NCBI GenBank assembly: GCA_902772105.1
Contig: CACXZI010000002.1
Span: 2,588 to 66,587 of the forward strand
Source of the DNA: Oscillospiraceae bacterium
GTDB taxonomy: Bacteria > Bacillota > Clostridia > Oscillospirales > Ruminococcaceae
Direction: 5' to 3'
DNA: 64,000 nucleotides
The notes beneath the pieces are model-generated. The model was not told where the DNA came from. It saw only the letters and a list, made by a program, of their open reading frames with translations, and searched no databases. Below, piece by piece: positions 13,446 to 15,800 of the stretch. Numbering within the stretch: position 1 is the first letter of the stretch; every line of letters begins with the position of its first letter. The position numbers and the translations under genes are program-made.

Positions 13446-15800
13446 ATGAAACGGTTTAAAATTTTAAACATATTAAGTTTAATTGTTTTAATTTCATATA
13501 TAGATAATATTAAAAGTTTTGCAAAAATTCAAAATAGTGTTATTAACAAAGTAGAAAAAGGACAAGAAGTTAATATAAAGGGCTTAAATTTTAAAAGAAT
13601 TTCTTTTGATGAAGAAACAAAAGAAAGTGTTTATTATAATGAAAGATATAATATAATTATAACTAGCGGGGTTAAAAGTGACAATAATCAAAAAATAGGA
13701 CATATTTCATTTCAAATGGGGTTAGAAGATGATGAAGGGAAACCTCACGGTGTTGAACATTCATTATATAGTAACCAATTATTTGAAAATAAAGATGAAA
13801 AGAAAAATTGGGTTGGCCTTTCAACTGCTAGTGGTAATGGATATAGTGGCAGTAATGCATATACATATAATTTATTAGATTCGGTGGGAAATGTTCAATT
13901 TGAATTTGATAGAAAATTATTTGAAAAAGAAAATGAAAAAGAATTCCCAAAATTTGTTGATATATTTTTGGGTAAAGTAAAATTTTTATTAGATAGAGAA
14001 GAAACTTTCAAAAGAGAAATAAAAAATAAAGTAAATGGAAAAATTGTTTCTCGTATATTGCATGAGATATTAGCAAAAGATTCTAAAATAGAAAAAGGTA
14101 TGATAACAAGAGCAGATGATATTTTTTGTGCAGGTGGGAAATATCAAGAAATTAAAAAAGTAACTTTTAAAAAACTTAAAGATTTTTATTTTAAATATAT
14201 TGTTAATGGAATGTCTTGTTTGTTTTTGCAAGTAGAAAATTTAGAACAAGCAAAAAGGCCTATTAGTTTGTTTAAGAAATATTATTATCAAAAGAAAAAA
14301 AATTATAATATATCAGATTTAGGTAAAAAGAAGAAAGTTGAATTTTTTAAAAAAGGAAAATTATATGAAGGTATAAAAGATAAATCTTTTAAGTATTTAG
14401 AAGGAAAAGGTGGTAAACAAAGAGAAAAAATATCAAAATATATTTGTGAAGAAACATATAAAATAAAAGATTATGATGAAATGAAGAACACTTGTTTTAT
14501 GTTTTTAGATATTGATAATTTTTTAAATAAAGCAGTTGATATAAAAAAATATGGTTTTGAAAAAATTGAGTTAAATGTTGAAGAAGAGGGTGTTCTTTGT
14601 TTAAAAATATTTGGTAATGATGAAAAACTTTTCGAAAAAGATATTATAGAAGAAAAATTAAAAAAAATTAAGGAAGATATTTTGAATTTTATAGAATTAA
14701 ATAAAATAACTTTAGAAGATATGGTGAAAGGAAATAGAAAAGAATATTTAGAAGAAAATATTAAAAAAAGAAAAATTAATTCTACTATAATATATAATAA
14801 AATTTTAAAATCTTTGGTTGAAACTAAAATTCCTTTTTCAAAAAAATATTTTACTTTAGATAAAAATAAAGAAATTTTAAATGACTATAAAGAATATGAA
14901 AAGAACTTTGAAGAAAATTGTAATAGTTTAATAAAAGATGGTTTAAAAGAAAAGCCAGAAAAAATTAGAGTATATGAAAATGTTGTTAAAGAACAAGAAA
15001 AAATAGAAGAAATAGAAAAAAAGAAACTGCCGTATAAAATAAATTCAAATAATATTGTGGAATCAATAATAACAGAAGAAATTATAATAGAAAAATTGTT
15101 AAGAGATCTTAGTAGAAAAGGTTTGATATATTGTTCAGTTAATGGTAGTTATGTTTTAAATGAACATATGCATCTTTTATTTGATTCAGAAATTGAAATT
15201 ATAAAATCTTTCTTTAAAAAGGAATTTAAAAAATTATTGAAAGATTTAAAATTGGAAGATTCCTATATAAAAGATAAAGTTGAAATATATAAAAATATAT
15301 CTCAACAAGAACAAAAAAATTTAGATATATTAGAAAATAAGCATAAAAATATAGTTAGTTCTTTAAAAAACGTTCTAAATGAAAAAAAATTAAAGATGGA
15401 AAAAGTTAAAAATTTAATAGAAGAAATTGAAAAATTCAAATATGACTTTTTAAACGAAACAATAATGGTTATAAAATTAGAGAAAAAAGATTATGATAAA
15501 TTAGAAAAAATTCAAAAAGAATCAGATAAAAATATGGGTGAGATTTTTAGATATTTTTACACATATTATAAAAGATCAACAGATAAAAAATTAGATGATA
15601 AGATAAATAAAGAATATTTTAAAATATTAGCAAAGCAGATGAATTTAGAAGAAGAAATATTAAAATATATTAAAATATTAAAACAAAAGAATAAAAAACA
15701 AATTGAAAAAATAAAGGATTTGAAAATAGAGAATATTAAAAAAACGTTGAAGAATGTTACTATTGAAGACTTTGATATTATAAATAAAAAAAGTAATTAA
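13446..15800 (+). CDS. Secreted, highly divergent M16C (PreP/insulinase-like) metallopeptidase homolog with a long K/E-rich C-terminal region
   Basis: GAGG RBS 7 nt before the ATG at 13446. Signal peptide MKRFKILNILSLIVLISYIDNIKSFA|K. SDNNQKIGHISFQMGLEDDEGKPHGVEHSLYS carries the inverted zinc motif HxxEH in an M16C-like context (compare ..F.F.T...D..G.pHiLEHS). GSNAYTYN matches the NAFT motif about 35 aa downstream. Confidence 0.55.
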   Translation: MKRFKILNILSLIVLISYIDNIKSFAKIQNSVINKVEKGQEVNIKGLNFKRISFDEETKESVYYNERYNIIITSGVKSDNNQKIGHISFQMGLEDDEGKPHGVEHSLYSNQLFENKDEKKNWVGLSTASGNGYSGSNAYTYNLLDSVGNVQFEFDRKLFEKENEKEFPKFVDIFLGKVKFLLDREETFKREIKNKVNGKIVSRILHEILAKDSKIEKGMITRADDIFCAGGKYQEIKKVTFKKLKDFYFKYIVNGMSCLFLQVENLEQAKRPISLFKKYYYQKKKNYNISDLGKKKKVEFFKKGKLYEGIKDKSFKYLEGKGGKQREKISKYICEETYKIKDYDEMKNTCFMFLDIDNFLNKAVDIKKYGFEKIELNVEEEGVLCLKIFGNDEKLFEKDIIEEKLKKIKEDILNFIELNKITLEDMVKGNRKEYLEENIKKRKINSTIIYNKILKSLVETKIPFSKKYFTLDKNKEILNDYKEYEKNFEENCNSLIKDGLKEKPEKIRVYENVVKEQEKIEEIEKKKLPYKINSNNIVESIITEEIIIEKLLRDLSRKGLIYCSVNGSYVLNEHMHLLFDSEIEIIKSFFKKEFKKLLKDLKLEDSYIKDKVEIYKNISQQEQKNLDILENKHKNIVSSLKNVLNEKKLKMEKVKNLIEEIEKFKYDFLNETIMVIKLEKKDYDKLEKIQKESDKNMGEIFRYFYTYYKRSTDKKLDDKINKEYFKILAKQMNLEEEILKYIKILKQKNKKQIEKIKDLKIENIKKTLKNVTIEDFDIINKKSN

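Follow-up and report, generated by a model that had tools for sequence, protein, structure and literature searches.

What is the 784-residue protein encoded at 13446-15800 of a 64,000-nucleotide stretch of an Oscillospiraceae genome (assembly GCA_902772105.1, contig CACXZI010000002.1; the whole stretch is called the window below), and can it be a working peptidase? A first, sequence-only reading had proposed a secreted, very divergent homologue of the M16C (PreP-like) metallopeptidases. We conclude, with a probability of about 0.72, that the protein is an exported zinc metallo-endopeptidase whose ancestry lies in the M16C (PreP/falcilysin) branch of the insulinase family. Over the first ~470 mature residues the assignment to M16C is correct. 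What follows them is a module peculiar to the lineage, and the protein as a whole has neither the architecture of M16C, which is a single ~100-kDa four-domain chain, nor a four-domain clamshell in cis. It belongs to an exported family, not recognised before, that has expanded 12-fold and is restricted to one genus.

Used as a single phmmer query against the PDB, the protein returned noise only, and it matches none of the Pfam models PF00675/PF05193, M16C_assoc (PF08367) or PreP_C (PF22516). A profile of seven family sequences gave a weak, long, collinear match to Arabidopsis PreP (2fge, E 1.1), and with 12 sequences the match to this structure (2fge_A) reached E 5.5e-4 over ~250 residues with all motifs in register: HxxEH on HILQH, NAyT on NAFT, sRillE on GVVFNEMKG, and GG..eikkvtFkelkdfyfkyiv on GG..IP.LTFEEFKEFHRQYYHPSN. 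Aligned by hhalign to one single M16C sequence, the family profile scored weakly (probability 5.8 %). A reference set of 17 canonical M16C genes was extracted from other Clostridia, and hhalign between these and a 31-sequence family alignment gave a probability of 99.2 % (E 6e-20, query positions 57-513 on template positions 29-465), with domain 1 (D1) alone reaching 99.4 % against canonical M16C D1 (E 1e-21). A hidden Markov model (HMM) of the family D1 scored 40-86 bits on all 17 canonical M16C proteins and 6 bits on the M16B protein of the same genome, and the reverse search, with a canonical M16C D1 HMM against the 2557 open reading frames (ORFs) of the genome, recovered family members (best E 4.6e-12). 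Because the family profile, hhalign, the D1 HMM and the reverse HMM agree, the homology of D1 to M16C is secure; the M16C reading is supported specifically at the profile and fold levels. The lack of any significant M16 profile hit had been named beforehand as grounds for abandoning the idea, and curated single-sequence libraries are indeed empty, a result overturned by the family profiles. In the same way, the suggested HMMER-type comparison with Peptidase_M16, M16_C and M16C_assoc was negative for Pfam and positive, as homology to M16C, with family profiles and hhalign. The proposed very divergent M16C homologue is thus borne out by the 2fge match, the hhalign probabilities of 99.2-99.4 % and a Foldseek ranking led by falcilysin and PreP (E 5e-12).

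By chance, HxxEH would be expected 0.007 times per protein in a chain of this length with seven His. Across 12 homologues and paralogues (26-80 % identity) H101, E104, H105, A138, T140, E191, R203, E207 and G231 are invariant. HGVEH, found where it had been placed from the sequence, aligns to HILQH/HILEH of PreP and canonical M16C and lies in helix 99-109 of the AlphaFold model, in agreement with the active-site helix that had been put forward as a check. The NAxT motif reported earlier is also present, as NAYT with its A138 and T140 invariant. The acidic segment to which the distal Glu ligand had been assigned does hold the invariant E191, which closes helix 186-191; the alignment to PreP instead puts the zinc-ligand Glu at E207 (SRILHEIL, in helix 203-214), opposite the Glu of GVVFNEMKG, and the alignment to canonical M16C agrees. 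E207 is therefore the predicted distal zinc ligand. Its spacing from H101 is 106 residues, inside the M16C range in the table of a 2025 review, where the distance from HxxEH to Glu is 100-114 residues for M16C and 76-87 for M16A/B (PMC12731061). Additionally, AGGKYQEIKKVTFKKLKDFYFKYIV aligns to the SGG.P..I..LT...F..FH..YYHPSN block of M16C D1.

An AlphaFold2 model built from a 12-sequence alignment had a predicted local distance difference test score (pLDDT) of 82 and a predicted template modelling score (pTM) of 0.78. Foldseek searches of the PDB with this model resulted in 202 hits at E<=1e-3, dominated by M16 structures; the top 15 were all falcilysin or PreP (best 5.5e-12), followed by PqqL, IDE, human PreP and FusC. 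The alignments covered 530-670 columns, and the template modelling (TM) score to two-domain M16B subunits was ~0.45-0.50. Set against the D1/D3 and D2/D4 secondary-structure patterns of the 2025 review (PMC12731061), the predicted order of elements fits the D1/D3 type in residues 41-295 and the D2/D4 type in residues 301-515, with the topology bb(bb)aa bb aaaaa b across 296-515. On this predicted fold and the collinear extension of the hhalign match, residues 296-515 are a canonical M16 domain 2 (D2). The C-terminal ~550 residues, earlier described as impossible to align to M16 domains, are in this respect of two kinds: 516-784 (~270 residues) are indeed unmatched, and 296-515 are modelled as D2. 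The four-domain clamshell that had been suggested as something to look for was not found, since only D1 and D2 are canonical in the model and D3 and D4 are absent. A loop of D2 carries a family-specific motif, (T/N)PFS(K/E)K(Y/F)F, which reads PFSKKYF here (residues 463-469, window 14832-14852), with F464, S465 and F469 invariant; a motif of this type is kept in distant paralogues and congeners (APFDDRFF) and has no counterpart in canonical M16C.

The rest of the chain is a ~270-residue helix-rich, lineage-specific module that stands where the canonical C-terminal half would be. Its helices are 30-40 residues each in the model, and residues 500-784 modelled separately gave a pLDDT of 84. The sole invariant Tyr of this tail, Y562 (15129-15131), lies in the alpha/beta part within (K/R)KGLIY. 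Foldseek found no fold match for the tail in the PDB (best E 0.5, to designed or generic helical bundles), and a sequence-profile search of the PDB found none either. Identification of the tail as M16 D3/D4 was rejected, as the separate AlphaFold model with Foldseek, the PDB profile and the per-domain hhalign comparisons were all non-significant. Neither the M16C_assoc helical hairpin/D3 nor PreP_C/D4 was detected in the family by Pfam, and the canonical D4 HMM likewise had no family match. In a greedy, sub-significant hhalign alignment (E 0.04) KGLIY562 falls on VRVQGGAY, the R/Y motif of M16C D4, and a D2-type template scores slightly better for the tail than D4 (hhalign E 0.006). In M16 peptidases the R/Y motif of domain 4 normally completes the active site (PMC12731061). 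The tail may be a heavily remodelled D2/D4-type domain.

The leader strongly implies export. It has a basic n-region (MKRFK), a hydrophobic core of 14-15 residues and a c-region ending in SFA, with K as the first residue beyond; there is no Cys and so no lipobox. The same n/h/c design with A at -1 is common to all 12 paralogues, so that the Sec signal peptide of the earlier reading is recovered by its sequence features throughout the family, with cleavage after SFA probable. The AlphaFold model shows the signal peptide as a helix of low confidence, after which residues 27-39 form a disordered linker. The 784-residue protein has 18.5 % Lys and only 7 His, and its mature form is 90 kDa. The accompanying premise that bacterial M16C enzymes are cytoplasmic does not hold, as M16C proteins with signal peptides and SLH or Big_5 anchors occur in other Clostridia.

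The assembly of 1.59 Mb, with 24 % guanine plus cytosine (GC), encodes nine clear paralogues at 24-50 % identity, and a family HMM adds three more distant ones, giving 12 genes, ~30 kb and ~1.9 % of the genome. HxxEH is kept in 11 of the 12 and degenerate in the other; the orthologues all keep it. An alignment of the nine close paralogues has 25 invariant columns, and nine of these are the D1 residues from H101 to G231 listed above; the catalytic and ligand residues together with NAxT account for about a third of all invariant positions and are kept in 11 of 12 paralogues at ~29 % mean identity. Sister genomes contain a separate orthologue of each paralogue, at 60-80 % identity, and the duplications are therefore old and retained. 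For the gene in the window the syntenic ortholog is 79.5 % identical, and the ratio of nonsynonymous to synonymous substitution rates (dN/dS) is 0.20 overall, 0.15 in D1, 0.21 in D2, 0.29 in the helical part and 0.156 in the short 99-codon alpha/beta segment; housekeeping neighbours range from 0.03 to 0.11.

Two other members of the family are described here in their own right. An 840-residue paralogue (C22:16624-19146, - strand; contig and positions) has a fully degenerate HxxEH (GNINIISQML) and forms a tandem array with two paralogues in which the motif is intact (C22:13632-16502 and C22:10519-13104), an arrangement that recalls the inactive/active subunit pairs of M16B. A distant 760-residue paralogue begins ~330 nucleotides past the end of the window (C2:66915-69197, + strand, which would be window 64328-66610); it has a signal peptide, HLIEH and a GG..I..L.....KKYINPSN block, and 5 homologues in a collection of 5.8 billion sequences. 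A 19-nucleotide element, AAATTTACA-NN-TAGTTTAA, occurs in five exact copies in the genome (C2:66795, C9:14792, C9:7182, C22:1532 and C1:98472) where ~0.07 would be expected. Four of the five lie 34-108 nucleotides upstream of M16C-like paralogues and the fifth 32 nucleotides upstream of the gene for a canonical M16B active subunit. Near copies with one mismatch (C3:33104, C9:14932, C9:7350) or two (C6:13015) are also present, and three further paralogues have a near-exact copy before their start. The TTTACA of the element is similar to a -35 hexamer, its conserved spacer hints at an operator, and the element may mark a shared "M16 regulon". It was looked for upstream of the gene in the window and is absent there.

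Several results weigh against an active M16C peptidase. Single-sequence searches of Pfam and NCBIfam give no M16 match for this protein, its homologues or the most distant paralogues; the alignment under the AlphaFold2 model is shallow, at 12 sequences; D2 taken alone has no significant sequence match by hhalign; and hhalign of the tail against each of the four canonical M16C domains gave nothing significant, and an R/Y pair in the tail has no confident identification (E 0.04). The chain lacks the canonical C-half, without which M16 enzymes are said not to reach full activity (PMC12731061), and canonical assoc/D3 and D4 HMMs run against the 2557 ORFs revealed no stand-alone D3/D4 gene in the genome. 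The absence of the half needed for catalysis also speaks for a pseudo-enzyme, the scaffold alternative of the sequence-only reading, in which the M16 N-half would serve as a binding scaffold or surface adhesin (on the host or the spore surface) and the tail as a functional binding module. M16 pseudo-enzymes are known, such as the bc1 core proteins (PMC12731061), one paralogue (C22_16624) lacks HxxEH entirely, and the tail has a weak similarity, at E>0.5 only, to helical bundles of surface or host-binding proteins. A scaffold sits poorly, however, with four catalytic and ligand residues and an NAxT motif that are invariant in 11 of 12 paralogues at such low identity, and with D1 having the lowest dN/dS of the larger domains, a value approached by the 99-codon alpha/beta segment. 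We consider the pseudo-enzyme unlikely, and the best reading is an exported, active peptidase whose chamber has to be closed by a partner or by its own tail.

The neighbourhood suggests two further roles. Upstream lie four exported K-rich protein genes (8091-12144), rnpB and a 943-bp spacer rich in adenine and thymine (AT-rich), in that order; downstream, on the opposite strand, are a phosphoribosyltransferase gene, spoIVA and sipL, and the gene order from the K-rich genes to spoIVA/sipL is conserved in a sister species. The K-rich proteins, which had been suggested as substrates for processing, are exported like the peptidase, and the adjacency of the genes is kept in a sister species; these points speak for the suggestion. 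The K-rich family comprises only five genes genome-wide, the four in the window and one at C5:37123-38055, evolves faster than the peptidase (60-74 % identity to the sister species), and has no gene beside any of the other 11 paralogues (0/11), so that a dedicated protease-substrate pairing is not a family trait. The peptidase gene is, moreover, separated from the K-rich genes by rnpB and the 943-bp spacer and has its own conserved promoter-like block, which together make it improbable that the enzyme is dedicated to maturing or processing the four upstream proteins. A sporulation-linked protease, acting at the spore surface or in the intermembrane space, is the least probable of the readings considered and is suggested by position: the gene is 1.5 kb from spoIVA/sipL with conserved synteny, in an organism that has sporulation genes, but the strands diverge, the phosphoribosyltransferase gene intervenes, other paralogues sit amid unrelated housekeeping genes, and the conserved promoter-like element appears to be of the sigma-A extended -10 type with no recognisable sigma-E or sigma-K motif.

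An active exported peptidase would work as follows. After Sec export and removal of the leader, zinc would be held by H101, H105 and E207, with E104 as general base, and peptides or unfolded chains would be captured against the D1-D2 bowl and cleaved. Since M16 catalysis needs a second half, the chamber would have to be closed by the tail or by a partner; the lid could be the helical tail, possibly with an R/Y-like K558/Y562, or a homo- or hetero-dimer with paralogues in the manner of M16B. By analogy with M16 enzymes, the protein probably works as a catalyst outside the cell, where it would cut peptides or unfolded polypeptides. The battery of paralogues most likely diversifies the substrate range, for peptide scavenging or for destroying peptides of the host or of competitors. 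The likely role is peptide degradation outside the cell with specificities that differ between paralogues, which could serve nutrition in a reduced genome or peptide removal; the assignment of substrates is speculative. A more elaborate picture, which we offer as tentative and doubtful as a whole, is an exported "three-quarter" peptidasome in which D3 was lost and the tail is a remodelled D4 with an R/Y-like K558/Y562, or alternatively combinatorial dimers of the 12 paralogues, dead subunit included. Part of the family would then share regulation by the promoter-proximal 19-nucleotide element with the canonical M16B operon, and the battery would be a tunable extracellular means of destroying or harvesting peptides of the host or of competitors. 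Such a system, in a gut symbiont with a reduced genome, would have arisen in parallel to the INS expansion of Cryptosporidium by convergence.

The coordinates of the gene and its parts are collected in the table. The ORF proposed at the outset is real, with ATG, stop codon (15798-15800) and Shine-Dalgarno sequence in place. GTG 13440 was considered as a start and rejected; as it falls within the Shine-Dalgarno GAGGTG, and all paralogues open with M-x-K-(F/N)-K-I-L, the start is ATG 13446. A TTTTATG(T/C)TATAAT block is kept in the orthologous spacer of the sister species, the rest of which is 77 % identical, and TGTTATAAT within it probably serves as the promoter; its extended -10 form points to ordinary sigma-A transcription. 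A second block of the spacer, AAATATAGTAAAATA..TTGA.ATTATAT (13225-13262, ~190-220 nucleotides before the start codon), is also kept in the sister species and may be a further promoter or operator. Upstream, ORF 12311-12532 was discarded as spurious, as it overlaps the RNase P RNA.

Table. Features of the peptidase locus, in window coordinates.
Feature	Position	Residues	Strand	Basis
RNase P RNA, bacterial class A (rnpB)	12168-12501		+	266.6 bits, full length
Candidate extended -10 promoter, TGTTATAAT	13383-13391		+	55 nucleotides 5' of ATG; conservation in a sister species
Shine-Dalgarno, GAGGTG	13435-13440		+	5 nucleotides 5' of ATG 13446
Coding sequence of putative exported M16C-derived peptidase paralogue	13446-15800 (stop included)	784 residues	+	ORF, syntenic ortholog, dN/dS
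Sec-type signal peptide, MKRFKILNILSLIVLISYIDNIKSFA followed by K	13446-13523	1-26	+	n/h/c regions, A at -1
M16 domain 1 (catalytic)	13563-14330	40-295	+	hhalign, HMM, reverse HMM, Foldseek
HGVEH (H101, E104, H105), inverted zinc-binding/catalytic motif	13746-13760	101-105	+	Family invariance, alignment, model helix
NAYT (M16 NAxT strand)	13854-13865	137-140	+	A138 and T140 invariant; aligned to LNAFTY/LNAMTY
E191...E207 segment, FKREIKNKVNGKIVSRILHE	14016-14066	191-207	+	E191, R203, E207 invariant; E207 predicted distal zinc ligand
M16 domain 2 (non-catalytic), predicted	14331-14990	296-515	+	Model topology, Foldseek, collinear hhalign to q513/t465
C-terminal module	14991-15797	516-784	+	Short alpha/beta part 516-604, then long helices 605-784

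The family occurs in a single genus only, one of spore-forming Clostridia with small, AT-rich genomes. A phmmer search of 1.84 billion cluster representatives returned 12 proteins, and the 5.8-billion-sequence collection gave 7 matches for the gene in the window and 5 for the distant paralogue, all without Pfam domains. Seven of 10 congeneric genomes encode one or two distant exported relatives of ~650 residues with HxxEH and an M16C-like SGG..IP..Y....YIHPSN. Searches of 30 other genera of the same family and order, and of 300 genomes from 178 genera of class Clostridia, were negative, and a locus-level search of genome contigs for relatives confirmed none. Canonical M16C is itself absent from the genus and nearly absent from the order, with M16C_assoc in none of the 10 congeners. 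An apparent native canonical M16C in the present genome (M16C_assoc match at C5:543-1283) was rejected: the first 3000 positions of this 49.8-kb contig (C5:1-3000), which encode the C-terminal 660 residues of a canonical M16C, have 56 % GC against 24 % in the genome, so the contig end is chimeric or foreign, and it is the only thing in the genome that the canonical assoc/D3 HMM finds. Taken at face value, this foreign end would wrongly imply a canonical PreP-like enzyme in the organism. In other Clostridia there are exported M16C proteins of 1126-1139 residues in which four M16C domains stand between a signal peptide and an SLH or Big_5 anchor, and three of these (L043:322-3729, - strand; L044; L046:1-3378, + strand) rank first to third on the family D1 profile (83-86 bits). 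The simplest history would be descent from an exported, wall-associated M16C whose C-half was lost or remodelled, followed by amplification.

Among known systems, the best profile and fold hits are PreP and falcilysin (Arabidopsis PreP 2fge, human PreP 4nge/6xou, and Plasmodium falciparum falcilysin 3s5k/8wyy). HxxEH, NAxT, QE.., ..NEM.. and GG..I..(T/S)(F/Y)..... Y..P.N are in register with these, D1-D2 are collinear and the HxxEH-Glu spacing of the family falls within the M16C range. The family differs in lacking the M16C_assoc hairpin (~70 residues)/D3 and PreP_C/D4, in its length of 784 rather than ~960-1190 residues, in being exported where PreP and falcilysin are organellar or cytoplasmic, in its ~13 % identity to them, and in having twelve paralogues rather than one gene. 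The wall-anchored Clostridia proteins L043, L044 and L046 share the signal peptide, the class and the highest D1 scores, and their type is the likeliest ancestor on sequence comparison; unlike the family, they keep all four M16 domains (Peptidase_M16, M16_C, M16C_assoc, PreP_C), are recognised by Pfam, carry SLH/Big_5 anchors and are single-copy. In M16B a D1-D2 half must pair with a second half (PMC12731061), and in its D1-D2 half, its TM scores and its tandem genes with an inactive member the family resembles such subunits (MPP alpha/beta, the BHP homodimer of Bacillus halodurans, TTHA1264/1265, SPH2681/2682, AlbE/AlbF, and YmfF/YmfH of Bacillus subtilis), whereas its D1 is of M16C type (own M16B, 6 bits), it has an extra ~270-residue helical module and is exported, and dimerisation is conjectural.

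For action outside the cytoplasm there are bacterial M16 precedents in the exported or periplasmic FusC and PqqL (PMC12731061) and in HrrP and SapA, which degrade host peptides (PMC8175422); FusC, PqqL and HrrP/SapA resemble the family in acting on host-derived peptides or proteins outside the cytoplasm. One account describes 22 INS genes, an expanded insulinase-like family, in the small-genome gut parasite Cryptosporidium parvum (PMC8074150), and the likeness is one of concept, in that both are gut organisms whose small genomes encode many divergent M16 paralogues. INS, FusC, PqqL and HrrP/SapA differ in belonging to the M16A/B subfamilies with other domain sets, and for the present family any substrate or host is conjectural.

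M16 peptidases have been described as obligate two-half clamshells (PMC12731061), and a catalytic half kept under purifying selection in twelve exported copies with the second half missing implies either a new way of completing catalysis or a new subunit pairing. Pfam and NCBIfam fail to detect the family, which occupies ~1.9 % of the 1.6-Mb genome, and for this reason the main exported protease repertoire of an uncultured gut lineage is probably annotated as "hypothetical". The paralogues, at 24-50 % identity, offer a compact natural series for studying how the M16 chamber diversifies, and the parallel with the insulinase-like expansion in Cryptosporidium may reflect a common strategy of small-genome gut dwellers.

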